Assembly: GCA_965250085.1 (NCBI GenBank)
Contig: OZ252287.1
Span: 896,001-960,000, forward strand
DNA length: 64,000 nucleotides
Origin: Candidatus Altimarinota bacterium
Lineage (GTDB): Bacteria; Patescibacteriota; Gracilibacteria; CAIRYL01
Reading direction: 5' to 3'
In this document: positions 25,765-41,167 of the stretch, one piece after another
How positions within the stretch are numbered: position 1 is the stretch's first letter
How the letters are laid out: the number at the start of each line of letters is the position of its first letter
Notes under the pieces: model-generated
Database searches by the model: none
What the model was told of the DNA's origin: nothing
What the model saw: only the letters and a program-made list of their open reading frames with translations
Position numbers and translations under genes: made by a program

Positions 25765-26844
25765 ATGAATGCAGACACAAAACTTTTTTGGGCACAACTG
25801 GATTTTCTCACCATGCGCCGTCTTAAAATTTTAAGGCGATATTTCGGGGATTTGGAAACAGCAAAAGAGCATTTTTCTGAAGCAGAATTTCTCAAGGCCG
25901 GCATACCACGGCGCAGTGTGACGGCTCTTATAAAAAAACAAAGGGAGATGAATTTCAGAAAAATTCAGAAAAAATTTGAAGAATCGGAAGCGACGCTGCT
26001 TTTTTTGGAAGATGGGGACTTTCCCGAGTCGCTCAAAAATATTTCTGACTCGCCTATCTTTCTCTTTATCCAAGGCGAGATACTTCCAGAAGATCTTTTG
26101 TCGCTCTCGGTCGTCGGAACCAGAAGATGTTCTGCTCATGGCAAGCAGTGTGTGCACCATGTGCTCCCCGACATCATTCATGCGGGATTCACCATTGTCT
26201 CTGGCATGGCACGCGGCATTGACTCTCTGGCGCACCAGGAAGCCCTCGCTCGAGGCGGACGCACTATTGCTGTCTGGGGCACGGGAATAGACAGAGTGTA
26301 TCCAGAAGAGAACAAGGCTCTGGCACACAAGATCAGAGAGCAAGGCGCCATTATTTCTGAATTTCCCCTCGGCACGGAGCCCAACAATTACAATTTCCCC
26401 CGCCGGAACCGCCTGATTTCCGGGCTTTCACTCGGGACACTCGTGATAGAAGGCAAAGACAAGTCCGGCTCTCTCATCACTGCGCACCTTGCTCTCGAAC
26501 AGGGGAAAGAGGTGTTTGCCGTCCCCGGATCCCCCTTTCTCCCTCTTTCAGAAGCGACGAATCGTTTGATCAAAAAAGGCGAAGCAAAGCTTGTGCAAAC
26601 CAGCGATGATATTCTGGAAGAATTTGAATTTGTGCACGAAGTGGAGAAAAAACCGCTTCTCAAGCCCGAGAACAAACTGGAAGAGATTATTTGTGGAATT
26701 CTCACCAAAGAACCTCTTGCCTTTGACGAACTGGTGATACAAGCCTCAAAGCCGAGCCATGAGCTCAGCAGTGCCCTCACCGTAATGGCGATGAAAGGTA
26801 TGGTGCGAGACTTGGGAATGAATCAATGGGCGAAGAGTTTTTGA
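25765..26844 (+). CDS. dprA: DNA processing protein DprA
   Basis: SVVGTR, IVSGMARGID, NFPRRNRLISGLS, SGSLITA, VFAVPG, C-terminal winged helix. Confidence 0.97.
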   Translation: MNADTKLFWAQLDFLTMRRLKILRRYFGDLETAKEHFSEAEFLKAGIPRRSVTALIKKQREMNFRKIQKKFEESEATLLFLEDGDFPESLKNISDSPIFLFIQGEILPEDLLSLSVVGTRRCSAHGKQCVHHVLPDIIHAGFTIVSGMARGIDSLAHQEALARGGRTIAVWGTGIDRVYPEENKALAHKIREQGAIISEFPLGTEPNNYNFPRRNRLISGLSLGTLVIEGKDKSGSLITAHLALEQGKEVFAVPGSPFLPLSEATNRLIKKGEAKLVQTSDDILEEFEFVHEVEKKPLLKPENKLEEIICGILTKEPLAFDELVIQASKPSHELSSALTVMAMKGMVRDLGMNQWAKSF

Positions 26845-26859
26845 TCCATAGTTTTCTCC

Positions 26860-26911
26860 CTAAGCGGGAGCAGGTGTCATTCGCTTCGCTCAGAACACTT
26901 GCTCCCGCGTG
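26860..26911. repeat. Empty RAYT-element doublet (right end joined to left end), REP hairpin
   Basis: CTAAGCGGGAGCAGGTGT-CATTCGCTTCGCTCAGA-ACACTTGCTCCCGCGTG; 14-bp stem with one mismatch. Confidence 0.9.
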
Positions 26912-26914
26912 AAG

Positions 26915-27074
26915 AACTTATAGTCATTTTCATAAGAAGAAGACTGTTCATCGAGTCTTACATCCCCATACGGGTAGTAATCTAACAGCTGAATGATATT
27001 CCCTGCATCATCCGTATCCACATTACTGCCCGTCACAGATGATCTGCATAATGATAGATGATAGAGGGAGTGCC
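26915..27074 (-). pseudogene. Isolated RHS-core fragment
   Basis: Near copy of 30951-31108 (GTPSIIYHYADHL...ENDYKF) with a 2-nt insertion; bounded by RAYT ends on both sides. Confidence 0.9.
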
Positions 27075-27364
27075 CTAAGCGGGAGCAGGTGTGCCTTGTG
27101 CCACCTGGTCCTGATATTCTAAAAGGGTCAGCAATTGCAAGAGGACCATGGGGACAAGCAGATGAATGTAGCCAGTACTCTGGCCTAGCCACATATATAG
27201 CCAATCTTTGATGGTACAGGTTACAAAATACAGAGAGCTGTTCATGTCTTTATCAATGCGTATAGAAGGCATAGGTTGTGAACAAAGTAGAGTTAAAAGA
27301 TTGTGAGTGAAGGATGATGGAACCAGGTGTCATTCGCTTCGCTCAGAACACCTGCTCCCGCGTG
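27075..27364 (-). mobile_element. Internally deleted non-autonomous RAYT element (290 bp)
   Basis: Both ends present; RAYT 5' part (MPSIRIDK...KDWLY) joined to the 3' part (YVARPEYW...) at ATAT microhomology. Confidence 0.9.
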
Positions 27365-27390
27365 ATACAAAGTGAATGTTGGTGCACGCG

Positions 27391-27771
27391 TTATCGGGGA
27401 AAAACCATAAAAGATTCTATACTCATTTCTGTCGGTGAGAAAAATCTATTAATCCCAAACCAGAAAGAAATAGCTACAAAAAATACATACGCCAACATCC
27501 TTCCAACTATATGAAAGTCTGAATACTTTTTCATTTTATCCAGATTATAATACATACTAGCAACTCCTATTCCAAGAAAAAGAGAGATAATATATATTAC
27601 CCAAAGCGTAGCTATTCTTCCATTATAGTCGATATTCTCGAAGAATGTGTTAATAATGAAGAAAACAGATGTCAATAAAAATATGAAATTACACCCAAAA
27701 TAAACTAATAGCCACATTAAGTACCTTAATGACAAGGTCAATTCTCTCTTTAATAAAACTATATTTTTCAT
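27391..27771 (-). CDS. Putative immunity protein E (3 TM)
   Basis: AT-rich membrane-protein ORF immediately downstream of the RHS-LysM cassette. Confidence 0.7.
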   Translation of the reverse strand: MKNIVLLKRELTLSLRYLMWLLVYFGCNFIFLLTSVFFIINTFFENIDYNGRIATLWVIYIISLFLGIGVASMYYNLDKMKKYSDFHIVGRMLAYVFFVAISFWFGINRFFSPTEMSIESFMVFPR

Positions 27772-27798
27772 AAAAAAACTAAAAAGAACAAAAAGGGT

Positions 27799-28974
27799 TT
27801 AATCATTTTTGTCATCCTTGTCACTACCCTCTTTCAGGCTCTCAGGAACCCTAATTTTTTGACCGGGATTGATCAGACTTGGGTTATCTAAATTATTGTA
27901 CTCAGCAACCTGATTCCAATCGCTTCCAAAAATACCTGATAATGTATCTCCTTTCTGAACAGTGTAAAATTCAGATTCAGGGAGCTGTGGACCATAAACA
28001 GGTGGCTGAATCGGACCGATAAATACTGAATTTTGATAATTATTTTGCGTAATGTTTAAAGATTGTTCAGGAGATTCATTGAGTTGTTGCTTAATTTCTG
28101 CCAAAGTTTCCCCATTAGGGATAACAGAAGTTGTCATAAACAGAGGCACGGGATCTTCATCTTTACCTGAAAATCCTTTTGCTATGTTTATTAATCCAAC
28201 GCTTCCAACGTGAACTCCCTCATACATTGCACCTACTCCTGCATATGCTGCAATCCCTGAAGATCCATAAGTTAAAGATGCTCCTCCCACCACACCAAGC
28301 CCGCCAATGCCTAATTCTACTGTACCTTCCCCTACTGTTCTCCAATTCACATCCCAACTTGCGGGGTTGTACCATTCTTCCCCACTCGGATCCACATACT
28401 TGAGCGGATTATTCCTCACATATGCATATTTATTGAGTGATTGCGGATCAGAAATATCTCCAAACCAGGGATCAAGGGAAATAAACCTCCCAATCCCACT
28501 ATCATAATACCTCGCCTCATAGTAGTAGAGCCCCGTATCCTCATCCTTCTCTTTGCCCGTAAACTTATAGTCATTTTCATACGAAGAAGACTGTTCATCC
28601 AGCCTCACATCCCCATACGGATAATAATCCAGTAGCTGAAGAACATTCCCCATATCATCTGTATCCACATTGCTTCCGGTGAGATGATCTGTATGGTGAT
28701 ACACCACATCACTCTCATATGAAGGGACACTCACCTCTCCACACCACCAATTCGCCTCCTCAACCACTGGCCAAGCGACCTGTTCACCCGTACTTAAATT
28801 CACCACACACATCTCACCAAAGGTCTCGAGGTAATGTGCTTCCGTAACAGTTCCAGAAAGAGAAGTTTCATTCTCCCAGAGGGGTGATGTGTCTCCAGCA
28901 CAACCTGACAAATCAACTGTGCAAGTACTCCCACTGCCACTGACCAGACCATCAGAAGAGGCGGCTACTTTCAT
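27799..28974 (-). CDS. Orphan RHS cassette E: Cys-rich insert, RHS core, Gly-rich tip with LysM
   Basis: YHHTDHLTGS, FTGKEKDEDTGLYYYEARYYD, NPLKYVDPSG cleavage motif; YTVQKGDTLSGI...INPGQKIRVP LysM. Confidence 0.9.
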   Translation of the reverse strand: MKVAASSDGLVSGSGSTCTVDLSGCAGDTSPLWENETSLSGTVTEAHYLETFGEMCVVNLSTGEQVAWPVVEEANWWCGEVSVPSYESDVVYHHTDHLTGSNVDTDDMGNVLQLLDYYPYGDVRLDEQSSSYENDYKFTGKEKDEDTGLYYYEARYYDSGIGRFISLDPWFGDISDPQSLNKYAYVRNNPLKYVDPSGEEWYNPASWDVNWRTVGEGTVELGIGGLGVVGGASLTYGSSGIAAYAGVGAMYEGVHVGSVGLINIAKGFSGKDEDPVPLFMTTSVIPNGETLAEIKQQLNESPEQSLNITQNNYQNSVFIGPIQPPVYGPQLPESEFYTVQKGDTLSGIFGSDWNQVAEYNNLDNPSLINPGQKIRVPESLKEGSDKDDKND

Positions 28975-29011
28975 GTTTTTTTAAAGAGAAAAATTTGATT
29001 TACCGCACGCG

Positions 29012-29617
29012 TTATACCTGTCCGCTGTGGTGGAAACGTGCGCTAGCGAAAAAAACCTTGAATATAAGATAAATTTTAAGACAAATTTCAAGAAAATTTG
29101 GAACAGAGGCAAAATAATTTTTTTCGATGTTAAATAAGAAAAATAAGTAGGTTTGAGAAAAGAGAATAAGTAAAAGTAGAAATAAGAATACTGTTGTATT
29201 TAAAGATAATTTTATCTTTTCCCTTGATTGAGCTTTTAACAAGAATCCAATAATCAGCCAGCCAAAAGATATAACAATAAAAAGGTAGAGAAAAAAATAC
29301 CCGGCTAGTCCTTCATTTATTTGGAAAGACAAGGTAAAAAAGTAACTTAGTAACGGCAGAGAGAAGAGTAATACGGCCAAGACTATTGTTTTCCAAACTT
29401 CGCTTTTTGTTCTTTGGTAATAGACATAAGATAAAAGACTACTTATCGCCAGTATGACAGAGCACAGTAGTGAAATCCTCACGATGAATAGATTTGAATT
29501 TGTTAAGAATAGAGCAAGAAGAATAAACGATAGCAAAGTACTCCATAGATAAGTTTTTCGTAAAGCTCCCGCAAGGTTTTTCATAAGTTTAAAATAAAAG
29601 TGTTTTAGGAATTTCAT
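29012..29617 (-). CDS. Putative immunity protein D (multi-TM), paralog of 33210-33779
   Basis: NEGLAGYFFLY..ISFGWL aligns with FNGLAGWFFFQ..GSIGWV; follows a hydrolase-tip remnant. Confidence 0.75.
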   Translation of the reverse strand: MKFLKHFYFKLMKNLAGALRKTYLWSTLLSFILLALFLTNSNLFIVRISLLCSVILAISSLLSYVYYQRTKSEVWKTIVLAVLLFSLPLLSYFFTLSFQINEGLAGYFFLYLFIVISFGWLIIGFLLKAQSREKIKLSLNTTVFLFLLLLILFSQTYLFFLFNIEKNYFASVPNFLEICLKIYLIFKVFFASARFHHSGQV

Positions 29618-29739
29618 TCAATAAAATCTTTAATATAACCCCATGCTTAAGAATTTCTTAGCCAACTGTGGATTTCAACGTTTCCGTGTCCTGTATCCCC
29701 AAATCCCAAATTAACAACATTGGCTTCTGGTCTCCATGT
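29614..29739 (-). pseudogene. Remnant of a third hydrolase toxin tip (D)
   Basis: Translates TWRPEANVVNLGFGDTGHGNVEIHSWLRNS*AWGYIKDFIE*, matching IHSWIRSDQAW and FHSWLRTSDAW of tips A and C. Confidence 0.8.
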
Positions 29740-29741
29740 AG

Positions 29742-30053
29742 CTATAGCATCACTTCTTCTATTGTATTGATCAGACCTAAAGAAAAGAGAGCCTTGGTTG
29801 TGAAATAATTAAGAACAAAGTAAAAGATTATAGTAAGAGTAGTTGCAATCAAAATACCCAGGCTCTTTGAGGTAGTCAATTTTTCTGCTAAAAACAGACA
29901 AAACTTACAAATGAGCCATAAATAAGTAAAAAATAGAATAATTATCAAAAATAATTGAATCATTATATATGAATCACCCAGTGGTAATCCAATCTTAAAC
30001 AAAAAATCTGTGATAGCAGTTGCAATATAATTTATAAATGACGGGAAAATCAT
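29742..30053 (-). CDS. Putative immunity protein C (membrane)
   Basis: Hydrophobic AT-rich ORF directly after toxin cassette C. Confidence 0.7.
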   Translation of the reverse strand: MIFPSFINYIATAITDFLFKIGLPLGDSYIMIQLFLIIILFFTYLWLICKFCLFLAEKLTTSKSLGILIATTLTIIFYFVLNYFTTKALFSLGLINTIEEVML

Positions 30054-30082
30054 AATTTCCTATAAAATGATAAAATTAAAAA

Positions 30083-31300
30083 CTAATTATCATCGTTTTT
30101 AGTAGTTTTAGAGCTACCGTCATCATGCAACTCGGGTATACCGTCTTCATTTGTTTCAGCCTTTAAGATACCTAAATTTACAAGCTGATCTTTTATTGAA
30201 TTATTCCAAGCATCAGATGTTCTTAGCCAACTATGAAACTTGTTCGAAGACCAATAAAAGTTTCCACCTCTTGCACGCAAATTAACAGCTTTTTCTAAAG
30301 CGTGTCTAAAACGACCCCTAATAGACATAGGTGGATATGCGACCTTACCAGCAATTTGTACATTATCTGACCTATGATACACATTTATAAAATCAACAAC
30401 GGTTGAGTCTTTATCGGAGAGAAAGTAGTTATCATGAACAGGCGTTCCTAATGTGAGAAGAGTATCCACCTTTCTTCCAAGTCCACTATTTATTGCTTCA
30501 ATGGCAACATTGCCACCATGACTGTGTGCAACTATATTTAGTTGCTCACCTTCGGAAAAATTATAGTTAGAGATAAAACCTTGAAGAGACCTTGCTCCAT
30601 TGGCACGGGCCTCGGTGCTGTTTTTTCCAGACCAGTTGAAAGCCGCAGAAGATTTGTCACCAAGGTCACTAGTTACTCTGTTCATGTAAGAACTGGAAAA
30701 AGAATTTCGACTTTTTCCTGGCAAAACAGTTCCATGAATAAAGATAGTGAGAAGCCCATCAGGATCAATTGCACCCAAGGGATTATTACGGACATAAGTG
30801 TACGAATTTAATTGCTGAGGATCCTTCAGGAAAGTTTCTGGAGAAAGTTTTGCCATCGGGTCAATAGCAGTAAACCTCCCAATCCCAGAATCATAATACC
30901 TCGCTTCATAATAATACAAACCCGTATCCTCATCCTTCTCTTTGCCCGTAAACTTATAGTCATTTTCATAAGAAGAAGACTGTTCATCGAGTCTTACATC
31001 CCCATACGGGTAATAATCCAGTAGCTGAATGATATTCCCTGCATCATCCGTATCCACATTACTGCCCGTCAGATGATCTGCATAATGATAGATGATAGAG
31101 GGAGTGCCGCCCTCTGCCGGAGGTTCCCCTCCTCCTCCATTCCCATGATCCACCGTAATCGCACCGGAACTGTATACCATGACCGGTGCATTGACCCCAT
31201 CGTCAATCACTCCATAGACATACTGATCCCCTTCAGGCAGACCTGAGGTGTCCCAATACAGAGAGCTGTTCATGTCTTTATCAATGCGTATAGAAGGCAT
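30083..31300 (-). CDS. Chimeric orphan RHS cassette C: RAYT N-terminal 15 aa, RHS core, alpha/beta-hydrolase tip
   Basis: MPSIRIDKDMNSSLY fused to WDTSGLPEG...; NPLGAIDPDG; AHSHGG nucleophile elbow; LLTLGTP. Confidence 0.9.
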   Translation of the reverse strand: MPSIRIDKDMNSSLYWDTSGLPEGDQYVYGVIDDGVNAPVMVYSSGAITVDHGNGGGGEPPAEGGTPSIIYHYADHLTGSNVDTDDAGNIIQLLDYYPYGDVRLDEQSSSYENDYKFTGKEKDEDTGLYYYEARYYDSGIGRFTAIDPMAKLSPETFLKDPQQLNSYTYVRNNPLGAIDPDGLLTIFIHGTVLPGKSRNSFSSSYMNRVTSDLGDKSSAAFNWSGKNSTEARANGARSLQGFISNYNFSEGEQLNIVAHSHGGNVAIEAINSGLGRKVDTLLTLGTPVHDNYFLSDKDSTVVDFINVYHRSDNVQIAGKVAYPPMSIRGRFRHALEKAVNLRARGGNFYWSSNKFHSWLRTSDAWNNSIKDQLVNLGILKAETNEDGIPELHDDGSSKTTKNDDN

Positions 31301-31392
31301 AGGTTGTGAACAAAGTAGAGTTAAAAGATTGTGAGTGAAGGATGATGGAACCAGGTGTCATTCGCTTCGCTCAGAACACCTGCTCCCGCGTG
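31256..31392 (-). mobile_element. RAYT left-end stub (REP hairpin, leader, first 15 codons)
   Basis: Matches 27228-27364; CAGGTGT-CATTCGCTTCGCTCAGA-ACACCTGCTCCCGCGTG at 31352-31392. Confidence 0.9.
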
Positions 31393-31395
31393 AAA

Positions 31396-31938
31396 TTAAC
31401 TATCAACTAATAATTCTTTAAAATTCTTACAGGAATCTTTGATATGAGGAACAGTGTGTATTTTTAAGTTAAAAATTATCTCCCATATACGATCGGTATT
31501 TTTCTGTTGATTTTTTTCTTTCTTTATCTCCGTGTTCAAAATTGTCTCGATATCCATATATATTTCTTCAATATCGAGAGACATCTCACCGAGTCTTTCC
31601 TCAGATAATCGTTCTTGAAATTTCTTACTAATTTTTGATCTAAAACTAAAAGTACTAGGATTAGATCCTAAATAAGATTTTCCATCAGAGACATTTAATT
31701 CATCAAGATAGCCAGAAAGCAACCCTGATAACTGTTCTATTTTCTGAAAGTTCTCATAAAGCTCATTCAAGTGACCAAGGTCAAGTTTTTTTAATTTCAG
31801 TAAATTCTTGGTATTGGATAAAGTCAAAATCAGTCTGCCATAATTGCTGTAAAATTCAATTCTCTGATTATCAGAAAAATTACTAAAATTACTAAAAATA
31901 ACTTTTACATCTACATTAGCATCTTTTGGGATATTCAT
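31396..31938 (-). CDS. Putative soluble immunity protein B
   Basis: AT-rich 180-aa ORF directly downstream of basic toxin tip B. Confidence 0.7.
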   Translation of the reverse strand: MNIPKDANVDVKVIFSNFSNFSDNQRIEFYSNYGRLILTLSNTKNLLKLKKLDLGHLNELYENFQKIEQLSGLLSGYLDELNVSDGKSYLGSNPSTFSFRSKISKKFQERLSEERLGEMSLDIEEIYMDIETILNTEIKKEKNQQKNTDRIWEIIFNLKIHTVPHIKDSCKNFKELLVDS

Positions 31939-31965
31939 ATCTAGGATTATTAATATTAAAAAAGT

Positions 31966-32327
31966 CTAATTCTCAAGCTTCTTTTTTAATCTTCTAACAT
32001 TTGTTCTTTTCTTAGCAATTTCTTTCCTGAAGCCTCTTATGTCCTTCTTCCACTTTTTAGCATGGTATTCGTAATCTTGCCGAGTATTCTCTTTCCAGTA
32101 GTTTTTATTTTTTGTAGTGGGATCTTTAATGTACCCTTCATGTTCTTTTCTCCGCTTATTATATGATCTCATTCCCTTTTTTTCACGCCTAATCTGTTCT
32201 TTAATTTTTAATATTTCCTCCTTTCTCATCGCCGAAGGCAAATTGCTCATCCCATGAGCTGTCATGGCAACACCAGTAACAGAAACACCGGCAGAAGTTC
32301 CACATCCTACAGCTCCACCTGCAGTAC
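31966..32327 (-). pseudogene. 5'-truncated RHS-type toxin tip B (very basic)
   Basis: Frame reads TAGGAVGCGTSAGVSVTGVA-MTAHG...RSYNKRRKEHEGYIKDP...KKWKKDI; begins exactly at the RAYT right end. Confidence 0.7.
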
Positions 32328-32867
32328 TTAAGCGGGAGCAGGTGTGCCTTGTGCCACCTGGTCCTGATACTCAAAAGGGTCAGCAATTGCAAGAGGACCA
32401 TGGGGACAAGCAGATGAATGTAGCCAGTACTCTGGCCTAGCCACATATGTTCTTTTTACAGGATTATTTTCTATATATTCTTTTTTTTGCCAAAAATAAT
32501 CCTCAGATTCAATAACCTTGGGCATATTTGTTTTTTCCCAAATACAATACTTTCCATTTTTCATAAAAGCCGATTCTAAAGATGGTTCTGTGGAACGAAT
32601 ATTTTGCATCAATTCATATGCTGTATACTTTTTAAAATCACGGACAAATCCTGCTACATCAGGACATTGTATGATCATGTGAATATGATTGATCATAAAT
32701 ACGTATGCAAAAATTTGCAGGTCTTTATTTTGCTGACAGTATTCAAGTGAATTTGTGAGAAGACCCCAACGATCATAGCGGTCCAAAATATATAGCCAAT
32801 CTTTGATGGTACAGGTTACAAAATACAGAGAGCTGTTCATATCTTTAGAAACACGTATAGAAGGCAT
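32328..32867 (-). CDS. REP-associated tyrosine transposase (RAYT, Y1 HUH family), 179 aa
   Basis: LYFVTCT, AYVFMINHIH (HUH), RDFKKYT, catalytic YIENNPV, W..SSA. Confidence 0.93.
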   Translation of the reverse strand: MPSIRVSKDMNSSLYFVTCTIKDWLYILDRYDRWGLLTNSLEYCQQNKDLQIFAYVFMINHIHMIIQCPDVAGFVRDFKKYTAYELMQNIRSTEPSLESAFMKNGKYCIWEKTNMPKVIESEDYFWQKKEYIENNPVKRTYVARPEYWLHSSACPHGPLAIADPFEYQDQVAQGTPAPA

Positions 32868-32950
32868 AGGTTTTGTGAATAAGGCGGCTAAAGATTGTGA
32901 GTGAAGGATGATGGAAGTCATTCGCCTCGCTCAGAACACCTGCTCCCGCG
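32328..32950 (-). mobile_element. Full-length RAYT element with hairpin ends
   Basis: Right end TTAAGCGGGAGCAGGTGTGCCTTGTGCCACCTGGTCC; left end GTCATTCGCCTCGCTCAGAACACCTGCTCCCGCG; 14-bp terminal inverted repeat. Confidence 0.88.
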
Positions 32951-33228
32951 GAAGATATGATTGATCATAAATACGTATGCAAAAATTTGCAGGTCTTTAT
33001 TTTGCTGACAGTATTCAAGTGAATTTGTGAGAAGACCCCAACGATCATAGCGGTCCAAAATATATAGCCAATCTTTGATGGTACAGGTTACAAAATACAG
33101 AGAGCTGTTCATATCTTTAGAAACACGTATAGAAGGCATAGGTTGTGAACAAAGTAGAGTTAAAAGATTGTGGGTGAAGGATGATAGGAGCAGGTGTCAT
33201 TCGCTTCTCTCAGAACACCTGCCGCGTG
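32951..33228 (-). mobile_element. 5'-partial tandem duplicate of the RAYT element
   Basis: Coding part matches the full copy up to MINHI, then joins the next left end; own left-end hairpin at 33187-33228. Confidence 0.9.
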
Positions 33229-33779
33229 GAGCTTGATTTTATTAAGAGTGGAAAGACCAACAAAAATACTAATAATAAAATCTTGAAGACATGAAATGCA
33301 GAAAATAAAAAATCAGAAGGATCATATAAAAACCAAACATATAAACTATAAAAAACAATGCCAATAAGAGTAGAAAAAAAAATAAAAAAACAAGAAAAAA
33401 ATCCAAGCTTTTTATAAAAATGAAAAGAAATCAAATATGCAAAAACCCAACCTATTGAACCAATTATAACCCCTTGAAAAAAGAACCATCCAGCAAGACC
33501 ATTAAATGTGCGAAAAGTAGAAATGTAATCATGAATCGAATAAACAATGCAAAGAAGTGATAAAGAAACAACTATTTTTAAGAGTGCCGACTCAAAACAA
33601 AAAGAAGAAAAGTAATAATTAGCCAGGCTGAATACAATAAATGATAAAAACACTGGCAATAAAATATGAGTATAGGGAATTGGATAACTCATAAAAATTA
33701 GAAAAACCAAACTGATAACGACTGATGTTACACAGCATCCATAACTTACTTTTTTGACAGCCTTAGGAAAATTATTCAT
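33210..33779 (-). CDS. Putative immunity protein A (multi-TM), cognate of the full-length RHS toxin
   Basis: Directly downstream of RHS; about 6 hydrophobic helices; last residues TRQVF* are read from the REP end. Confidence 0.8.
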   Translation of the reverse strand: MNNFPKAVKKVSYGCCVTSVVISLVFLIFMSYPIPYTHILLPVFLSFIVFSLANYYFSSFCFESALLKIVVSLSLLCIVYSIHDYISTFRTFNGLAGWFFFQGVIIGSIGWVFAYLISFHFYKKLGFFSCFFIFFSTLIGIVFYSLYVWFLYDPSDFLFSAFHVFKILLLVFLLVFPLLIKSSSTRQVF

Positions 33780-33796
33780 ATGACAAAAAGAAAAAC

Positions 33797-36700
33797 TTAT
33801 TCTTTTGAGCCCTCTTCCTGCTTCTTTTTTATAGTTTCTCGATTACGAAGGCTTCGAATCATAGTTCCGATATCACTCCAGGCTTGATCACTTCTTATCC
33901 AACTGTGGATATCTATTTTTTCTTGTGTATAACTCAAAGGCTGATTAAATTCTAAATTAGAAGTTCCACTTGCTCCTCTCCAAGGATGTCGAGGTTTTTC
34001 ATCCGTTCCCTCAGCACCAGCCCATTGAACAATATCTTCTACATGATACACATTATAAACCTCATGAATATTTGTTGTATCTAATTCATAATCTGATCTA
34101 TTTGGAGTTGCCAATAACACTAAAGCATCAACATTTCTGCGAATTCTTTCATTATTAATAGCTTCAATGGCAACATTTCCACCATGACTATGCCCTACTA
34201 TATTTAATTGCTCACCTTCTGCAAATTCGTAATGTTCATTTATATATTTTGCAAGAGCCATAGCAGCTACGGATCGTTCGGACTTATTGTTTCCACCAGA
34301 CCATCGCATATTAATATATTTATTGTCACCCAAGTCAGCGGAGGCTTTTTTCATATAACTTTCTGAGAAAGGATTTGCATCTTTCCTTGGCAAAACAGTT
34401 CCATGAATAAAGATAGTGAGAAGTCCATCAGGATCAATTGCACCTAAAGGATTATTCCGCACATAAGTATAAGAATTAGACTGTTGTGGATCAGTTAAAA
34501 AGGTTTCTGGGATATATCTGGCAATCGGATCCACACTCACAAACCTCCCAATCCCAGAATCATAATACCTCGCCTCATAATAATACAACCCCGTATCTTC
34601 ATCCTTCTCTTTCCCCGTAAACTTATAATCATTTTCATAAGAAGAAGACTGTTCATCCAACCTCACATCTCCATAGGGATAATAGTCGAGGACTTCCAAT
34701 ACATTTCCCATATCATCCGTATCTACATTAGACCCTGTCAGATGATCTGCATGATGGTACACAATCGCAGGAGTGCCGCCCTCTGCCGGAGGTTCCCCTC
34801 CTCCTCCATTCCCATGATCCACCGTAATCGCACCGGAACTGTATACCATGACCGGTGCATTGACCCCATCGTCAATCACTCCATAGACATATTGATCCCC
34901 TTCAGGCAGACCTGAGGTGTCCCATGTATAGCTGTCAGACACATCATCTTCAGAGATCCCCTGCTCGTTGATACTCCTTCCATCAAATCCTTCAGTATCT
35001 GTATCAGAAAAGAAAGAAACAGACGCATCGTCATCGGGATCAGAGTCTGTCCAGGTAATCACAAATGAAGTATCGGCTGTGTCATCCACTCCATCAGGTT
35101 CCACAAGAGTGAGCGTGGGAGGCGTGTTATTCGTCCCTCCTGTATCTCCATGATCTACTGTCACTGGTCCCGCACTGTATACCGTGACCGGAGGATTGAC
35201 CTCATCGTCAATCACTCCATAGACATAGTAGTCTCCACTCAGAAGATCTGTCGTATCCCATGTATAACTATCGGTCGCATCGTCTTCAGAGGTTGCCACC
35301 AGCAGTCTTCCATCAGCACCACTATTATCTGCATCAGAAAAGAAAGAGAGGGAGGCGTCATCATCCGGGTCATCATCTGTCCAGGTAATCCCAAACGACG
35401 TATCGGCTGTGTCATCCGTTCCATCTGGTTCCACAATCGTCAATGAAGGAGCAGTATTCCCCGACCCCCCGCCTTCGTGATATACAAAAACCGAACCCCC
35501 GCTATATGCGATGACGGGTGCATTGACCCCATCGTCAATTATTGCTGAGAGTGGATATTCTCCCTCTGGAATTGCAGAGGTATCCCACAAAAAAGAGTCG
35601 GTCGTATCGTCTTCACTGAGCAGTGGAGACGTAACGGAGACAAATTCAGTTCCATCATGATATCTCACATCGATGGATGCATCGTCATCTGGATCAGAAT
35701 CCGTCCACGTGATGAGAAAACTCTGGTCAGCACCATTATCTTGGTCAAATGCGGGGAAAAGGAAGGTAAATGTGGGCGGAATGTTTCCTTGTGCGTGTGC
35801 GGAAGAAAAAAGCATAGAAGAAAACACGGACGGGATATCGAGATATGAAGAACGCCCATTATTGCCATTTCCGTTCCCGTTGCCATTCCCATTCCCATTC
35901 CCACCGCCCGATGGAGGGGGAGAACCGGGAACAATCTCGGCGTTCGAGAGAGTTGCAACTTTCATACCGCCGGCTGGCAGGGAGACAAAATTCTTCACCT
36001 CGCCATCTTCAATGTCAGAATATTCATTGACATATATTGTCTCTTTTCCACTGGTCGCATTGACCTTTTTCACTCTCGCGCCTCCTTCATCATACTCATA
36101 ATTCACGGTGCTCACTCCATCTGTAGAGCTCAGCATGCGGTCTTTGTAGTCCCAGCTATGGGTCCACGTATCATTGGAAAGAAGATTTCCATTTTTATCA
36201 TATGTGTACGGAACGGTTTGAGATTTCCCTTTCACTTTTGGTGTTATGATTTGAGTAACGGCATGGGGATTCGCTGTCGTCCCAGAACTGGTAGCAGAAC
36301 CTCCTCCTGCATAGGCATAGGTGCCAGCTTCTGAATGGCTCAGCATATTGCCAATGATATCATAGGTAAATTCACGAGTATAATTGTCTCCATTGGCGGC
36401 ATTGGTCACGGTTGCGGAGAGCAGTCTGTCCAGATCGTCATAGGTATAATTCACGGTTTTTGCAGAATTGGTGCTAGACGCATCTACTATTTGGGTAATG
36501 TTTCCCACCGGATCAAAGGTGTAGCTGATGTCTTGTAGTAGGGGCTCAAGATTTTGAGCCTCTACGATAGTGGTTTTATTGGTCAGTCGGTAGATCTGAT
36601 TGATATCATAGGTGTTTACGGTGCTCACGCCATTGGCGGAGTCGATTTGAGAGATACGTCCAATGGGAGAGGAGTCAATATTTGTTATCACCGGTGAAGA

Positions 36701-39700
36701 ACTCAGTCCATCACATCCATTCGTCATGCCAATATCACTGTCAGAAAAACATTGCGAAACAGTTTCTAATTGCCCCGCTCTGCCATATCCATATTCCACC
36801 GCTGTTTTTCCGTCAGGATACGTGATACTCAGCTGGTTCCCCACTAAATCATAGGTGAACGAAGTGGTATAAGTTGTCGCGTTGATATCTTTACTCTCAC
36901 TCAAAACTCGTCCCAAGATATCGTAGGCATAGTCTTTTTCCACGGCTGAGGAAACAATCCGCCTCAGACGTCCGGTGCCATGGGTGCCGAGATCATAGGT
37001 ATAGGTAGCTTGGAGCTGGGAGTCGGGAGCTGGGAGTGTGCGAGAAGACTCTGTCAGCACTCGGTCGAGCTCATCATAGGCATACGTGATTTCCTGATCC
37101 TTTGGATCAATTTGAGAGATGAGATTGCTATTGGCATCATAGTCATAACTCCAGGTGCCAAAGGTGGTATCTCCAGAGGTATGCAGATCCTGCATGGTGA
37201 GACGGCGACCAAGCAGGTCGTAGGTCATACTTCGTTCGTTTCCCTTGGCATCGGTAATCTTCGTGAGATTATTCAATTGATCATAGGTGTAGTTTGTATT
37301 GAAAGTACTGCCATCGAGGTGTTCAGTGACTTGCACCAGATTGCCCCTCGCATCGGATGCAAAATCTTTGGAATGTCCATTGGCATCGGTCACGGTTTGT
37401 GACCATTGGTCGTAGCTGGTAGAAGTGGTGCCGACGGGAGTGGTAATACTCGTGACACGATTGATCGTGTCATACGAGAGCTGGGAGCCAGGAGTTTGGA
37501 GCTGGGAGGAGTCGTAAGAACTTCCGGTCTCAAATGTGGGAAGGGTTTGTTTCTCCACATTTCCCCGATTATCATACTGAGTACTGAGTACTGTGTACTG
37601 ATTACTTCCTTCAGCTTCAGTTCTCGTTTGGATGGTTCTGCCAAAGCCGTCCAGGTACACAATCCCCTCTATCAAAATCTCCCCCAGCCCCTCTTTGCGA
37701 AAGAGGGAGGGTGTATGGGTGTGGGTCGTCGTCGTTACACTATTGGGCACTGAAGAGGTATTGTAGCTATATGTAGCGGCAGTTACTTCGTTCGCAGGTG
37801 ATGCGGGATTGGTGACTCGTGATTCAACCACTCGTCCCAGACTATCTAGCACGGTAATTGATTTCGCTCCATTGGGATCGGTGACTTGTGTGGGTACTCC
37901 GAAAAGGTAATTATATTCATAATTTGTACTGTGTGATTTGGCATTGGTAATTGTCTTGGGATACAGATTTACTGAATCATAGATAATATTAGTGTCGTAT
38001 CCACGGGGATTGGTGATCTTGGTCGGAAGACCGTATCCATTGTATTGAGTTTTCGTAGAAATCCACTGCTGACTGCTGACAACTGACAACTGACTCCTTT
38101 CTGTTCTGTTTCCAATGGAGACCTGCCCCAGCGGGAGATCATCATAATACATTTTGCTTTCTCCAATGACGTTTCCACCATTATCGAGTAACTCCTGTCT
38201 TTTAGGGAGAGAGAGGATATGATCGGTGGTGCTTAGGGCGTATTCAATATTGCTGGTGAGGGTATCGGAGCCGATGTCGGTAAAATTTCCCGCACCATCC
38301 ACAGCATTGACTTCTCCATAGTCAATTTGCTGTGTCATATTTCCGTACGCGTCGTAACTGAATTCTGAAGCGGTAGCTTTGTAATTGACGGAGCTTTGTT
38401 CGGAATAGGTCAGGGCGATGTTTTTTTCTAGGAGTGATTCATAACTATTGGTTCCACGAGGTTTAATATCGTAGAAGTTTTTTACTTCTTGTAATACATC
38501 TCCTACAGGAGTGTATATTTTTTGATTTTTCAGAGATCCTTTGCCGGCAAAATTTTGTGAAGGACTTCCCTGCTCGTATTCGGTCACAACTTTGGAACCA
38601 TCTGGCAGTGTTTTGGTGACGGTTTGAAATCCCAGAAGCTCCTGCTCCTGCACATGATTTCTATACATTTTCCCTCCGGTATATTCGTAGTTTATTTCAC
38701 TGGTATTTCCCAAACCGTCATTTGTAGAGAGTTTAGAAAGTGTCAGGCGGGGAATCGGAAGTTCAATATTAGCGGCACTTCCATCAGCATTGGTATAACT
38801 GGAAGCAGGAGTGTATTCAAAGCTTGCTGACCCTCCGAGAGGACTTGTCACACTGGTAAGGACAGGAAGGTCAAAAATAACGTCTTCTAATTCTGGAGAA
38901 ATATTTCCTTCGTCCATTTCCCGATATCTGTAACGAATATATTTTTCCTGGATACCATCATGGTTGATGTCTGTAAAATCATACACCGCATGAGCATCAG
39001 GATTATTCGGGTTTCCAAATTTCAAATCATTTCTCTGTATAAACGCATCTTCCCAACCGTTCCCATTATTGAGATACACCATACCAAGTGATTGAAAATA
39101 CATATCTGGTAGTCCATCACGATTGATGTCCATGAGTTTCGCATCTGCAAGATATCCATCATACTCGCAAGAATTCTCACCAGGAGTGCTTGAACTGTTG
39201 CAATCTTGCCCACGTTGTTCATACATGCGTGCCGGTAGAATGAGTTCTTCAGTGATATCATCCCATCCTTCTCCAGTGTTTAATAATATTTTCTTGCTCT
39301 CTACAAATGACCCAGGAATAGGATTTTCGTAGTCATAATCATAAAAAGCTTCGTATTGATAATCATGCACCAGGTCATCGAGACCGTCATTATTGATATC
39401 GATAAAAGTGCTTCCTGCTTGATGGTACACATCGTTAGGTATATACCACGCATGATTTGTGTCATCTTCATCAAGCCATCTGTCAGCCCCCTGACCGTTA
39501 TTTTTATAGAATATGTAGTCTTTTGTATTATTTCTTCGCCTTTCTCCATAATTAAACGCATCGAGAAGTGAGTCTTTATTCACATCGAGAAAAAAGTATC
39601 CGTATTTATATTCCGCATTCTCAGAGAGAAGCCACTGAAATGGTTCATTCGGGTCACAGACAAAACGATCACTCTGATTATTTCCATCATCAACACAGTG

Positions 39701-41167
39701 ATTGAGTTCAATATCACCGTTAAAATCAAGATATGATGACGATACAAGAGATTCTCCATCGTGAAGATCATGAAGGCCATGATTAAGAGGTATTACTTCT
39801 TCTGTCAGATCGCCATTCCCCTGATTCAGGTACAGCTTCATTTCATACTCATCATTTCCTACATATCGATTAGCAAAATAATCTTGCCAGCCATCGCTAT
39901 TATAATCGCCAAAAATATAGTGGTAGAGTCTATTTTGCCAATGTCCCCCTAAATTCGGATCCCAATAAGCCGGAAAATCAAGAGAGAATGACCGGGAACC
40001 ATCATAGGATTCATACTCAAACACAGTGGGAGGAAGGGACAGCTCACTTCCATTGGAGACCCCCTTTTGTTCTACGTTTTCCAGAAAAACAATGGTGTCC
40101 TGAGTGGCATAAGAAAATGTATACACGACTTTGTCTCCCGAAAATGGATCGATGACTTCTATCTGATCCAATACATCTCGTTGCTCCACCACTGGAAACA
40201 GTCTGGAATACGATGGGAGCATATCAAATTGTTCAATAGTGCCGGAAAAATAGGGTTCAAAACGAACTTCATAGGGCTGAGTTTCATTTCCATACACAAT
40301 ACGCTGTAAATAGACAGCTCCCTGACTTTTGGTATATTCATACGATATTGTATTGCCATTGGTATCTTTCATTTCCGTAACATACCAGGCGTACATCCTG
40401 CCTCCATCATCACTCTGCTCCCGTGCATCTGACATGGTTCCAAAACGATATATTGTGCCGGTAGCATCAATAATTTCCCAGGTATTATCTATTTTGAATT
40501 CATGGCGCACTACTCCAGCCTGTACCTTGGGAATGTACGTTCCATATCCATTGGCATCAATAGATTCAATGGTGAGTTCTCCACTGCCACCGGCAAAAGG
40601 AGAGAGGAAATTGTTGTTCGTGTACAGATCTTCTACCCCCGTGCGTGAGTATCGTTCTATCTTGGGAAGACTCAAACTCCATCCGGTGCCCAGTTCAGAA
40701 TTGACTTCTTTATTGCTGGCGGAATAGCTCAATTGAACTGAAGGAGTAAAGCCATTCCTTCCGGGTGGCACGAAAATGGGATATGAATACTGCACATCTC
40801 CGGTGAATTCACTCACGGTGTATTCACCACCGAGACCGACAACATTGCTCAAAGGATCCAAATTCATTTCTGGCACAAAGGTAAAATCATCATCTTGTCC
40901 GACTGCATTAGCAGATGAAGAAGCGGCAGACTCAAGAGATTCAGAATCTTGTGTTTCAAGAAGAGGTTCAGCAGAAGATAGTTCTTCGGAAGAATCTTCT
41001 CCAACAGGATTTTCCGCCTCATTGGTAGCAATTGATTCTTCTATAGCCTCTTGTGAATCCAATGTTACAGATTCATCTACCGTCGAAGCGTCCTGTGCAA
41101 ATGCGACAGGCAATATTCCTCCTTGAAGGAGGATAAAAGTACATAAAAAACATAATAATTTTTGCAT
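33797..41167 (-). CDS. 2456-aa secreted SpvB/FG-GAP/YD-repeat RHS polymorphic toxin with alpha/beta-hydrolase tip
   Basis: Signal peptide (..PVAFA-Q); SpvB-like YSYPIFVPPGRNGFTPSVQLSYS; DxNxDGxxD repeats; many YD repeats; three Ig-like repeats; RHS core; NPLGAIDPDG; GHSHGG. Confidence 0.95.
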   Translation of the reverse strand: MQKLLCFLCTFILLQGGILPVAFAQDASTVDESVTLDSQEAIEESIATNEAENPVGEDSSEELSSAEPLLETQDSESLESAASSSANAVGQDDDFTFVPEMNLDPLSNVVGLGGEYTVSEFTGDVQYSYPIFVPPGRNGFTPSVQLSYSASNKEVNSELGTGWSLSLPKIERYSRTGVEDLYTNNNFLSPFAGGSGELTIESIDANGYGTYIPKVQAGVVRHEFKIDNTWEIIDATGTIYRFGTMSDAREQSDDGGRMYAWYVTEMKDTNGNTISYEYTKSQGAVYLQRIVYGNETQPYEVRFEPYFSGTIEQFDMLPSYSRLFPVVEQRDVLDQIEVIDPFSGDKVVYTFSYATQDTIVFLENVEQKGVSNGSELSLPPTVFEYESYDGSRSFSLDFPAYWDPNLGGHWQNRLYHYIFGDYNSDGWQDYFANRYVGNDEYEMKLYLNQGNGDLTEEVIPLNHGLHDLHDGESLVSSSYLDFNGDIELNHCVDDGNNQSDRFVCDPNEPFQWLLSENAEYKYGYFFLDVNKDSLLDAFNYGERRRNNTKDYIFYKNNGQGADRWLDEDDTNHAWYIPNDVYHQAGSTFIDINNDGLDDLVHDYQYEAFYDYDYENPIPGSFVESKKILLNTGEGWDDITEELILPARMYEQRGQDCNSSSTPGENSCEYDGYLADAKLMDINRDGLPDMYFQSLGMVYLNNGNGWEDAFIQRNDLKFGNPNNPDAHAVYDFTDINHDGIQEKYIRYRYREMDEGNISPELEDVIFDLPVLTSVTSPLGGSASFEYTPASSYTNADGSAANIELPIPRLTLSKLSTNDGLGNTSEINYEYTGGKMYRNHVQEQELLGFQTVTKTLPDGSKVVTEYEQGSPSQNFAGKGSLKNQKIYTPVGDVLQEVKNFYDIKPRGTNSYESLLEKNIALTYSEQSSVNYKATASEFSYDAYGNMTQQIDYGEVNAVDGAGNFTDIGSDTLTSNIEYALSTTDHILSLPKRQELLDNGGNVIGESKMYYDDLPLGQVSIGNRTERSQLSVVSSQQWISTKTQYNGYGLPTKITNPRGYDTNIIYDSVNLYPKTITNAKSHSTNYEYNYLFGVPTQVTDPNGAKSITVLDSLGRVVESRVTNPASPANEVTAATYSYNTSSVPNSVTTTTHTHTPSLFRKEGLGEILIEGIVYLDGFGRTIQTRTEAEGSNQYTVLSTQYDNRGNVEKQTLPTFETGSSYDSSQLQTPGSQLSYDTINRVTSITTPVGTTSTSYDQWSQTVTDANGHSKDFASDARGNLVQVTEHLDGSTFNTNYTYDQLNNLTKITDAKGNERSMTYDLLGRRLTMQDLHTSGDTTFGTWSYDYDANSNLISQIDPKDQEITYAYDELDRVLTESSRTLPAPDSQLQATYTYDLGTHGTGRLRRIVSSAVEKDYAYDILGRVLSESKDINATTYTTSFTYDLVGNQLSITYPDGKTAVEYGYGRAGQLETVSQCFSDSDIGMTNGCDGLSSSPVITNIDSSPIGRISQIDSANGVSTVNTYDINQIYRLTNKTTIVEAQNLEPLLQDISYTFDPVGNITQIVDASSTNSAKTVNYTYDDLDRLLSATVTNAANGDNYTREFTYDIIGNMLSHSEAGTYAYAGGGSATSSGTTANPHAVTQIITPKVKGKSQTVPYTYDKNGNLLSNDTWTHSWDYKDRMLSSTDGVSTVNYEYDEGGARVKKVNATSGKETIYVNEYSDIEDGEVKNFVSLPAGGMKVATLSNAEIVPGSPPPSGGGNGNGNGNGNGNGNNGRSSYLDIPSVFSSMLFSSAHAQGNIPPTFTFLFPAFDQDNGADQSFLITWTDSDPDDDASIDVRYHDGTEFVSVTSPLLSEDDTTDSFLWDTSAIPEGEYPLSAIIDDGVNAPVIAYSGGSVFVYHEGGGSGNTAPSLTIVEPDGTDDTADTSFGITWTDDDPDDDASLSFFSDADNSGADGRLLVATSEDDATDSYTWDTTDLLSGDYYVYGVIDDEVNPPVTVYSAGPVTVDHGDTGGTNNTPPTLTLVEPDGVDDTADTSFVITWTDSDPDDDASVSFFSDTDTEGFDGRSINEQGISEDDVSDSYTWDTSGLPEGDQYVYGVIDDGVNAPVMVYSSGAITVDHGNGGGGEPPAEGGTPAIVYHHADHLTGSNVDTDDMGNVLEVLDYYPYGDVRLDEQSSSYENDYKFTGKEKDEDTGLYYYEARYYDSGIGRFVSVDPIARYIPETFLTDPQQSNSYTYVRNNPLGAIDPDGLLTIFIHGTVLPRKDANPFSESYMKKASADLGDNKYINMRWSGGNNKSERSVAAMALAKYINEHYEFAEGEQLNIVGHSHGGNVAIEAINNERIRRNVDALVLLATPNRSDYELDTTNIHEVYNVYHVEDIVQWAGAEGTDEKPRHPWRGASGTSNLEFNQPLSYTQEKIDIHSWIRSDQAWSDIGTMIRSLRNRETIKKKQEEGSKE

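Follow-up and report, generated by a model that had tools for sequence, protein, structure and literature searches.

A RAYT/REP hairpin family confined to the Rhs toxin arrays of a Candidatus Altimarinota genome

The cellular role of REP-associated tyrosine transposases (RAYTs) and of repetitive extragenic palindromic (REP) sequences is a long-standing open question, and a toxin array that carries both puts it in a specific form: does the transposase rearrange the toxin genes, or does it only live among them? The array in question lies in the window, by which we mean the whole 64,000-nt stretch of a Candidatus Altimarinota genome that was analysed; the source genome is one contig of 1,368,807 bp with 40% G+C. 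At positions 26860-41167 of the window, on the minus strand, a gene for a 2456-aa Rhs-family protein is followed by orphan core/tip modules and small open reading frames (ORFs), lettered A to E, up to dprA. A RAYT gene, its derivatives and their hairpin ends stand between these modules. An earlier note on this DNA had proposed that the enzyme captures, excises or reorders toxin-immunity cassettes like an integron. The pattern is real and unusual, and a RAYT/REP family confined to Rhs toxin arrays is a new variation on a known type of element; it offers a minimal REP population of nine hairpins within two toxin arrays. The element appears closer to a resident mobile element than to a toxin-shuffling machine. 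In the explanation that we consider probable, a locus-restricted RAYT/REP element lives and decays in a classic Rhs displacement array and reshapes that array as a by-product. An integron-like dedicated capture machine is not supported.

The intact RAYT gene (32867-32331, minus strand; 179 aa, P0001) was recognised by the NCBIfam RAYT model NF047646 (REP_Tyr_transpos) with 82.4 bits, a narrow margin over the cut-off of 80, and positions 8-146 of the 146 in the model were covered. The match to the IS200 model NF033573 was below threshold (23.2 bits, cut-off 55). Residues H61, H63, Y131, N135 and P136 are invariant in all eight aligned RAYT homologs, and we take Y131 to be the catalytic tyrosine from what is known of TnpArep. 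An alignment profile matched E. coli TnpArep (PDB 4er8) at 9.9e-11 over residues 5-137 and ISDra2 TnpA only at 0.007, while a PDB search with P0001 as a single sequence gave no match. Judged by its residues and profile matches, the product is a predicted RAYT-family Y1 HUH enzyme that retains the HUH and Tyr residues, and the family assignment made in the earlier note holds. Its nearest relatives are only 45-55% identical. The genome carries one intact RAYT, four decayed derivatives and one paralog with 54% identity. The multi-copy habit of IS200/IS605 elements was not found, since the genome has a single complete copy, with all derivatives inside Rhs loci.

The gene is bounded by two hairpins, a left end (LE) and a right end (RE), which carry GCGGGAGCAGGTGT as an inverted terminal repeat, like the inverted flanking REP palindromes of RAYTs. 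In an LE, the 14-mer GCGGGAGCAGGTGT forms the 5' arm and is separated by a loop of 17 nt from the 3' arm; an RE has the complement of this 14-mer as its 3' arm, and LE and RE are thus inverted repeats of each other over 14 nt. Read on the minus strand, the five LE hairpins of the window lie at 33233-33186, 32954-32907, 31394-31347, 27366-27319 and 26913-26866, and the three RE ends at 32372-32329, at 27120-27076 and in the tail of a hybrid hairpin at 26913-26860. All are oriented as the Rhs genes are. Repeat search, alignment and folding therefore agree with the five LEs and three REs, all in Rhs orientation, that had been reported before. Folding energies of the hairpins as single-stranded DNA range from -7.8 to -13.4 kcal/mol, except for the LE of the full copy; the z of most LE folds is about -1.

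The only full element (32329-32954) comprises LE2 (32954-32907), the RAYT gene and an RE whose hairpin (32364-32335, with the element end at 32329; -7.8 kcal/mol) lies inside the final RAYT codons. Its LE2 has lost 7 nt of the 3' arm and does not fold (-3.1 kcal/mol, z +1.6). The adjoining copy at 32955-33233 holds LE1 (33233-33186, with a 3-nt deletion in the 5' arm; -8.0 kcal/mol) and a RAYT 5' fragment (33139-32955), which has its start codon at 33139 and stops after about 62 codons inside the HUH motif, where LE2 starts. This copy is 92% identical to the full element, with 99% identity over 193 nt. At 31255-31394, LE3 (-8.2 kcal/mol) with the RAYT 5' leader and codons 1-15 is joined to an Rhs core and is 83% identical to the full element. 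This 15-codon stub (31300-31256) supplies the leader and start codon of the 405-aa core and lipase ORF of orphan C. A mini element of 291 bp (27076-27366), found by repeat comparison and alignment, combines LE4 and RAYT codons 1 to about 27 with the 3' end of the gene and an RE; it is 98.3% and 86.6% identical to the two ends of the full element, its two repeat families have 100% and 94% identity, and its layout resembles a MITE (miniature inverted-repeat transposable element) or a REPIN. Finally, a solo hybrid hairpin at 26860-26913, 16 nt from the dprA stop codon, joins the 5' arm and loop of an LE to the 3' arm and tail of an RE (stem of 13-14 bp; -13.4 kcal/mol, z -2.8). The earlier inventory of modules and RAYT pieces, which named the 5' fragment, the full gene, the fused stub, the mini element and the solo LE/RE hybrid, was correct.

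The distribution of these hairpins is the most distinctive property of the family. In the window, GCGGGAGCAGGTGT has seven matches at up to two mismatches against 0.08 expected; none of 100 shuffles reached seven, and all matches lie within 26864-32949. In the whole genome (1.37 Mb) there are seven exact copies of the 14-mer, all in two Rhs loci, and 11 copies at up to one mismatch. Nine of these 11 form hairpins: seven are in the window, where they make up arms of the five LEs and three REs, and two are in a second Rhs locus. The remaining two (genome 1045662 and 1190032) have no palindromic partner and look like chance matches. An over-represented flanking repeat dispersed through extragenic space, which is a hallmark of RAYTs, was accordingly not found: there are nine hairpins in total, all in the two Rhs loci, which lie 780 kb apart and make up about 1.8% of the genome. 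Scatter of the ends through the genome, which the earlier note had named as grounds for abandoning its idea, is clearly not what the count gave. A BLAST search of the genome with the element found nothing outside the Rhs loci except one paralogous RAYT gene.

This paralog (genome 1238737-1239207; L049 9738-10238) is 68% identical in the element BLAST and 54% identical to P0001, and with 95.3 bits it scores higher than P0001 on the RAYT hidden Markov model (HMM). It is preceded by the only two GGAGTC...GACTCC hairpins of the genome (0-2 in shuffles), a hairpin type that is also abundant in the Rhs array of a relative, G015, described below. As a side observation, a third and distant Y1-transposase-like match at genome 394447-394788, in a 187-aa frame, is 26% identical to residues 32-138 of P0001.

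The second Rhs locus (genome 140473-150487, plus strand; L050 4474-14491) is made up of a main gene for a 2117-aa protein, an orphan core that carries a lipase tip, and a further core fragment. The Rhs core model TIGR03696 matched three times, and the lipase tip is 62% identical to tip A of the window. LE-type hairpins stand at genome 147547 and 149308, one directly 3' of each of two immunity-like ORFs. The ends had been said to occur only in the window locus; its five LEs and three REs are there, and these two LE-type hairpins have to be added from elsewhere. The hairpin at 147547 is followed by a very weak RAYT remnant (E 0.003-0.008 in a search space of 377 nt). An assignment of this hairpin as an inverted RE was dropped, since the downstream remnant and the order of the arms fit an LE-type end co-oriented with the Rhs gene.

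The array of the window has the composition by which Rhs displacement arrays are known, namely a full gene with RHS repeats and core, and then orphan core and tip pieces with small ORFs. All modules are on the minus strand. The full-length gene (33797-41167; 2456 aa; Pfam RHS_repeat 1e-27, SpvB 1.1e-15) encodes an SpvB-like N-terminal region, RHS repeats, a DUF6443-like stretch, the Rhs core and C-terminal tip A. Tip A is an alpha/beta-hydrolase of lipase-like type, with weak Pfam matches to PGAP1, Abhydrolase_1 and Tle3 at residues 2299-2373, within the last 160 residues. TIGR03696 matched three times in the locus, at 34421-34684 in the main gene (genome 930421-930684), at 30752-31015 in orphan C and at 28381-28626 in orphan E. 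Just upstream of the core domain, the main gene also has three tandem units of about 330 nt (34800-35719; about 110 aa each) that are 62-82% identical, and the core of orphan C begins inside the last of them.

Behind the main gene lies immunity-like ORF A (33210-33779; 189 aa, hydrophobic, no Pfam family), whose last codons and stop codon are inside the LE1 hairpin. ORF B (31396-31938; 180 aa) is followed by LE3 6 nt past its stop codon. Next come the fusion ORF of RAYT stub, Rhs core and lipase-like tip C (30083-31300; 405 aa) and ORF C (29742-30053; 103 aa), which has no hairpin on its 3' side. At 29012-29689, repeat comparison found the 3'-end remnant of a lipase tip (29633-29689, 75% identical to 33870-33926) in front of hydrophobic ORF D (29012-29617; 201 aa). 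An orphan Rhs core with tip E (27799-28974; 391 aa) carries a C-terminal LysM domain (5.5e-11), and ORF E behind it (27391-27771; 126 aa, hydrophobic) is followed by LE4 29 nt past its stop codon. The small ORFs behind the modules are mostly hydrophobic and have neither a family match nor detectable similarity to one another; they are immunity-like ORFs that may neutralise the cognate toxins. The three lipase tips of both Rhs loci are 60-64% identical to each other (tips C and A, 61%), and the tips are otherwise distinct or diverged. The housekeeping gene dprA (25765-26844, plus strand; DNA_processg_A 3.2e-75) closes the array and lies outside the system.

Two pieces lie directly 3' of an RE, and the earlier note had read both as truncated Rhs pieces. 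This is right for the 160-nt Rhs core fragment at 26915-27074, which abuts an RE and is a 97-100% copy of 30951-31108. The other, an open frame at 31966-32328 that had been called truncated tip B, contains no Rhs core and has only a sub-threshold Pfam match. None of 300 longer candidate proteins was a homolog at E<=1e-3, and an Rhs origin of this frame is thus unverified.

The junctions between these parts are of two kinds. In the six aligned LE copies, the common sequence starts at the same point, CAC-GCGGG (C-GCGGG in LE2), behind unrelated 5' flanks. Four of these are the ends of immunity ORFs (A, B, E and G); the other two are pieces of a RAYT and of an Rhs core. The seventh LE, in the second locus, stands 3' of immF. 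The three RE ends stop at ...CCCGCTTA(A)G, after which unrelated DNA follows. The ends do lie at module boundaries, as had been claimed, with sharp and repeated end points. This position carries little weight alone, because it is nearly forced: the boundaries are the only non-coding gaps in such an array. Exact recurring end points with differing flanks are, in turn, the trace that would be expected of a site-specific nuclease/ligase acting at hairpin feet. The other joints have no hairpin. The joint between RAYT stub and Rhs core (31255/31254) shows 1-3 nt of microhomology, and the internal deletion of the mini element is at an ATAT microhomology. The copies are mosaic: LE3 and LE4 do not differ up to and including codon 15, and LE1 has loop and arm variants in common with LE6 and coding variants in common with LE2. 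Modules on the 3' side of an RE are truncated.

Homologous recombination has left its own traces. The 5' core segment of orphan C is nearly identical to the main Rhs gene (31180-31254 against 34849-34923), from which it follows that recombination between Rhs cores is recent and active in this array. On the evidence of these repeats, the array itself needs no new mechanism, as orphan cores with 97-100% identity would suffice for ordinary recombination.

Together, these data suggest the following course. An Rhs array of the C-terminal-displacement type, with full rhs gene, orphan core/tip modules and immunity-like ORFs, would have been colonised by a small RAYT/REP family. The element is a RAYT between two inverted-repeat hairpins, and the 5' fragment, the toxin-fused stub, the 291-bp mini element and the solo hairpin would be its relics. 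Within the arrays, the RAYT or its ancestors may on several occasions have cleaved single-stranded DNA at the feet of the hairpins and joined it anew; the remaining rearrangement could be due to homologous recombination between Rhs cores and to microhomology deletions. The element may have persisted in the arrays as these are probably dispensable DNA in a very compact genome, and possibly also hot spots of recombination and horizontal transfer, with a conserved Rhs core on one side and a housekeeping gene on the other. Transposition over short distances may have contributed to the clustering. The best reading is that the ends of the element are recombinogenic as a by-product. Hairpins 3' of immunity genes fit the usual position of REPs at gene ends.

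A trivial explanation would be that the assembler mis-joined or duplicated the LE, RE and RAYT repeats. Sequencing data covering the region came from four runs of one sample and study, in the form of short Logan contigs; the runs are DNA or of unstated type, and none is recorded as RNA. These contigs break at every repeat and possibly derive from the same sample as the assembly, so they are not independent support; the region is repeat-rich, and no contig of the four runs spans a repeat. Nevertheless, every unique segment between the repeats was recovered with zero mismatches in all four runs. The summed word depth is about 2-3 fold higher over the repeated parts, which matches the assembled copy numbers, with contig depth being only a rough guide. 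Moreover, the copies are 83-99% identical and have distinct indels, unlike collapsed or invented repeats. We therefore regard an assembly artefact as very improbable. Loose ends of contigs were seen in single runs at 28075, 30081, 29932, 33432, 27649, 27707, 28994 and 32215. A metagenome scan gave no match to the 30-nt LE pattern and no RAYT protein closer than 55% identity.

In relatives, RAYT and Rhs are mostly unlinked. P0001 homologs (45-54% identical) occur in 14 of 40 relatives, and no Rhs was found within 10 kb of the RAYT in any of the 14 relatives' RAYT loci examined. Rhs is present in 10 of the 40, and a RAYT is absent from the examined Rhs loci of six of them (G001, G004, G007, G021, G032 and G034). 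The same array without RAYT ends in relatives had been named in the earlier note as an argument against its own idea, and these Rhs loci supply it in part. Across the class, RAYTs are found in 204 of 401 genomes (731 matches, up to 14 per genome) and the Rhs core in 94 of 401 (193 matches). Neighbours were compared by eye for the best 150 of the 731 RAYT matches and the best 150 of the 193 Rhs-core matches. About 20 genomes are in both tables, and among the matches listed RAYT and Rhs core adjoin only in the source genome.

Several observations weigh against the explanation that we favour and speak for a functional coupling, in which the hairpins are single-strand recombination sites where the RAYT deletes, duplicates, moves or imports toxin-immunity modules. 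Two routes can be envisaged. A span from an LE to an RE, such as 31394-27076 (tips C-E), could act as a composite peel-and-paste unit, and LE3 and RE2 do bracket three modules in the correct orientation; alternatively, the hairpins could be a fixed joining point 3' of immunity genes, and five of the seven LEs in the two loci begin 0-55 nt past an immunity-like ORF. Neutral insertion would hardly place every hairpin in just two Rhs loci that are 780 kb from each other. LE6 of the second locus and LE1 have about 95% identity, whereas the lipase tips next to them reach only 62% at the protein level, so LE6 did not simply travel with an old duplication. The sharp, repeated end points with unrelated flanks point in the same direction.

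The contigs add a possible event of this kind. A 3331-bp deletion variant, 27364/30696, is present in the contigs of all four runs with a substantial share of the local depth. On one side its joint lies exactly at the 5' boundary of LE4, on the other at the foot of a hairpin of 9 bp (30693-30720) inside tip C; the deletion would take out everything from immunity C through immunity E. Hairpins as strong as this one number 401 in 1.37 Mb and account for about 0.8% of that length. Since the two sides of the joint overlap by 2 nt (CA), replication slippage could have produced it as well. A circle junction or an alternative LE/RE joint was not seen in these short contigs of one sample, in which rare forms are beyond reach.

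Further points on the same side come from other genomes, and the co-location of RAYT and Rhs outside the source genome, which had been suggested as a check, was found in some lineages and is missing from the relatives' loci named above. G015 belongs to another family of the same order and has a complete genome. Its Rhs orphan array has VanY/M15 and CHAP tips, and the distal part and end of the array contain three mini elements of 221 nt and a RAYT-like gene in two identical copies (29% identical to P0001). Nine of the 16 genomic hairpins of the GGAGTC type are in or at the end of this array, against a control count of 2. One more hairpin abuts an isolated Rhs fragment, and a second Rhs gene has an N-terminal RAYT fragment immediately upstream. 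This RAYT/hairpin family is unrelated to that of the window, and the layout arose with it independently. The G015 array also has a third hairpin family, CGAGTC...GACTCG (L051 8332-8399, 11537-11604 and 15450-15517), which stands right after three immunity-like ORFs and before the next orphan start, with no RAYT piece there.

In G029, a gene for a 222-aa RAYT-like protein begins 7 nt past a gene for a 2333-aa Rhs-family protein. This RAYT-like gene (L093 10203-10871) has, as a side feature, a stretch of GIGSV repeats that separates the HUH motif from the C-terminal half. In a Bacteroidota-type set of 35 RAYT loci (33-63% identical to P0001; many contigs too short to judge), the same-strand gene directly upstream encodes an Rhs protein or a polymorphic toxin in five firm cases and one weak case. 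In four of them (L012, L013, L058 and L068) this is an Rhs gene, with immunity-like ORFs between it and the RAYT; in L006 it is a Tox-SHH polymorphic toxin, and in the weaker case, L001, a DUF6443 protein. The remaining judgeable loci have housekeeping neighbours.

Against functional coupling stand the structure of the array and its alternatives. The modules on the RE side are truncated and not intact cassettes, the LE of the intact RAYT is broken, and two of the seven immunity-like boundaries in the two loci have no hairpin. The gaps behind immunity genes are almost the sole non-coding space in the array, core homology alone accounts for the exchange of orphans, and the RAYT and Rhs loci of most relatives are unlinked. 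The contigs gave no circle and no alternative LE/RE joint, which weighs less, as they cannot exclude rare forms. The truncated RE-side modules, the broken LE2 and the many unlinked RAYT and Rhs loci, together with the microhomology junctions, also make the case against a dedicated capture machine, and the integron-like role proposed in the earlier note is not supported. We consider a functional link doubtful; it is kept under consideration because of the restriction to two loci, the near-identity of LE6 and LE1, the G015 parallel and the deletion at a hairpin boundary. A broader conjecture, that in some small-genome bacteria and Bacteroidota the RAYT/REP hairpins would form an HUH-based single-strand recombination system for polymorphic-toxin loci that joins 3' of immunity genes, is less likely still. 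If it were true, it would assign RAYTs a function in the cell, and Rhs arrays would have a second, integron-like way to diversify.

A different use of the hairpins can also account for their place. They may be selected RNA or DNA 3'-end structures that tune or stabilise immunity transcripts, with a RAYT that only maintains and spreads them, as has been suggested for REPIN-RAYT systems; on this view the hairpins would be confined to Rhs arrays because such structures are useful there. The position 0-55 nt past the stop codons of immunity-like ORFs in both loci of the source genome fits this proposal, as does the same position behind small ORFs of the G015 array, where the third hairpin type follows three ORFs. 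Stems that fold at -8 to -13 kcal/mol fit it as well, and REPs near stop codons have been discussed as regulators (10.1101/2024.07.17.603846). However, the z of most LE folds is only about -1, two boundaries lack a hairpin and there is no T-run 3' of the hairpins. Only two terminator-like sites were found against 4.1 expected, neither of them at a hairpin. Promoter-like sites in the scanned region were also near expectation (25 against 22.4 +/- 4.4). We rate this proposal as improbable, and a resident element that decays within the arrays accounts better for the whole pattern.

Some observations made along the way concern RAYT and Rhs genes elsewhere in the class. Genes resembling isoleucyl-tRNA synthetase (IleRS), with the domains tRNA-synt_1, Anticodon_1 and DUF5915, carry an in-frame Y1_Tnp/RAYT domain at about residues 340-490 in relatives G035, G018 and G090 (L095 2452-6210, minus strand; L096 4494-9863, plus strand; and L097 2336-6088, minus strand, respectively). 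The G018 gene also carries His_Phos_1, GNAT and AAA inserts, and the class-wide search found several further RAYT matches inside frames of 950-1311 aa. In some families of the class (e.g. G146, G351, G152, G375 and G387), Rhs core matches contain 1-5 in-frame TGA codons and no other stops, which suggests that these lineages read TGA as sense. The Rhs genes of the source genome (G000) are open under table 11.

How far the locus resembles known systems can now be stated. IS200/IS605 elements, with their palindrome-associated transposable elements (PATEs) and MITEs, share with it a Y1 HUH transposase, hairpin ends with sharp boundaries and an internally deleted non-autonomous copy. They differ in that the gene of the window reaches only 23.2 bits against the cut-off of 55 and has no second intact copy, and in that its ends are inverted repeats of each other, while IS200/IS605 ends are not known to have terminal inverted repeats.

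RAYT/REPIN systems, represented by TnpArep (4er8), are closer. The family HMM, the HUH and Tyr residues, the inverted flanking palindromes and the doublet and singlet derivatives all agree, and a RAYT gene flanked by inverted REPs is the arrangement described for RAYTs (PMC5581495). In RAYT groups 2 and 3, as characterised there, tens to hundreds of REP 16-mers are spread across extragenic space (PMC5581495), whereas the family of the window has only nine hairpins, all in two Rhs loci. In addition, the RAYT of the window left partial gene copies, an insertion-sequence-like behaviour unlike that of described RAYTs.

Integrons, and the rAID-1 loci of Bacteroidales, are similar in having arrays of toxin-defence genes, repeated intergenic sequences and an associated recombinase; integron recombination sites are, moreover, folded single strands. 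These systems use an XerD- or IntI-type tyrosine recombinase at the end of the array and intact cassettes, whereas the window has an HUH Y1 nuclease in mid-array, and no integrase or Xer family matched among the 16 ORFs scanned in 25.7-41.2 kb. One site per intact cassette, as in integrons, is not seen: hairpins are 3' of five of seven immunity-like ORFs, and RE-side modules are truncated. The rAID-1 report describes arrays of immunity genes as "reminiscent of integrons", with an XerD-type recombinase (10.1101/471110). In literature searches for RAYTs together with Rhs or with toxin and immunity genes, neither a RAYT-Rhs link nor an HUH-based equivalent of rAID-1 was found, and a preprint that names both RAYT and Rhs handles each separately in its passages on them (10.1101/2024.07.17.603846).

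The closest counterpart of the array as a whole is the orphan array of Rhs and contact-dependent inhibition (CDI) systems, with a full rhs gene, orphan cores with different tips, small ORFs and core segments of high identity. The array of the window is unlike these systems in being interleaved with a RAYT and its hairpins, where classical E. coli Rhs elements carry insertion sequences of the H-rpt/ISAs1 type, and in that one orphan took the start codon of a RAYT, which suggests that transposase genes can provide orphan toxins with a start codon. The pattern has an independent parallel in G015, from another family of the same order, and RAYTs stand behind Rhs or polymorphic-toxin genes in other lineages. 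Orphan Rhs and CDI modules are described as mobile and exchanged (PMC3150448), and even on a modest reading the window is an example of the co-evolution of HUH elements with Rhs arrays in streamlined genomes.

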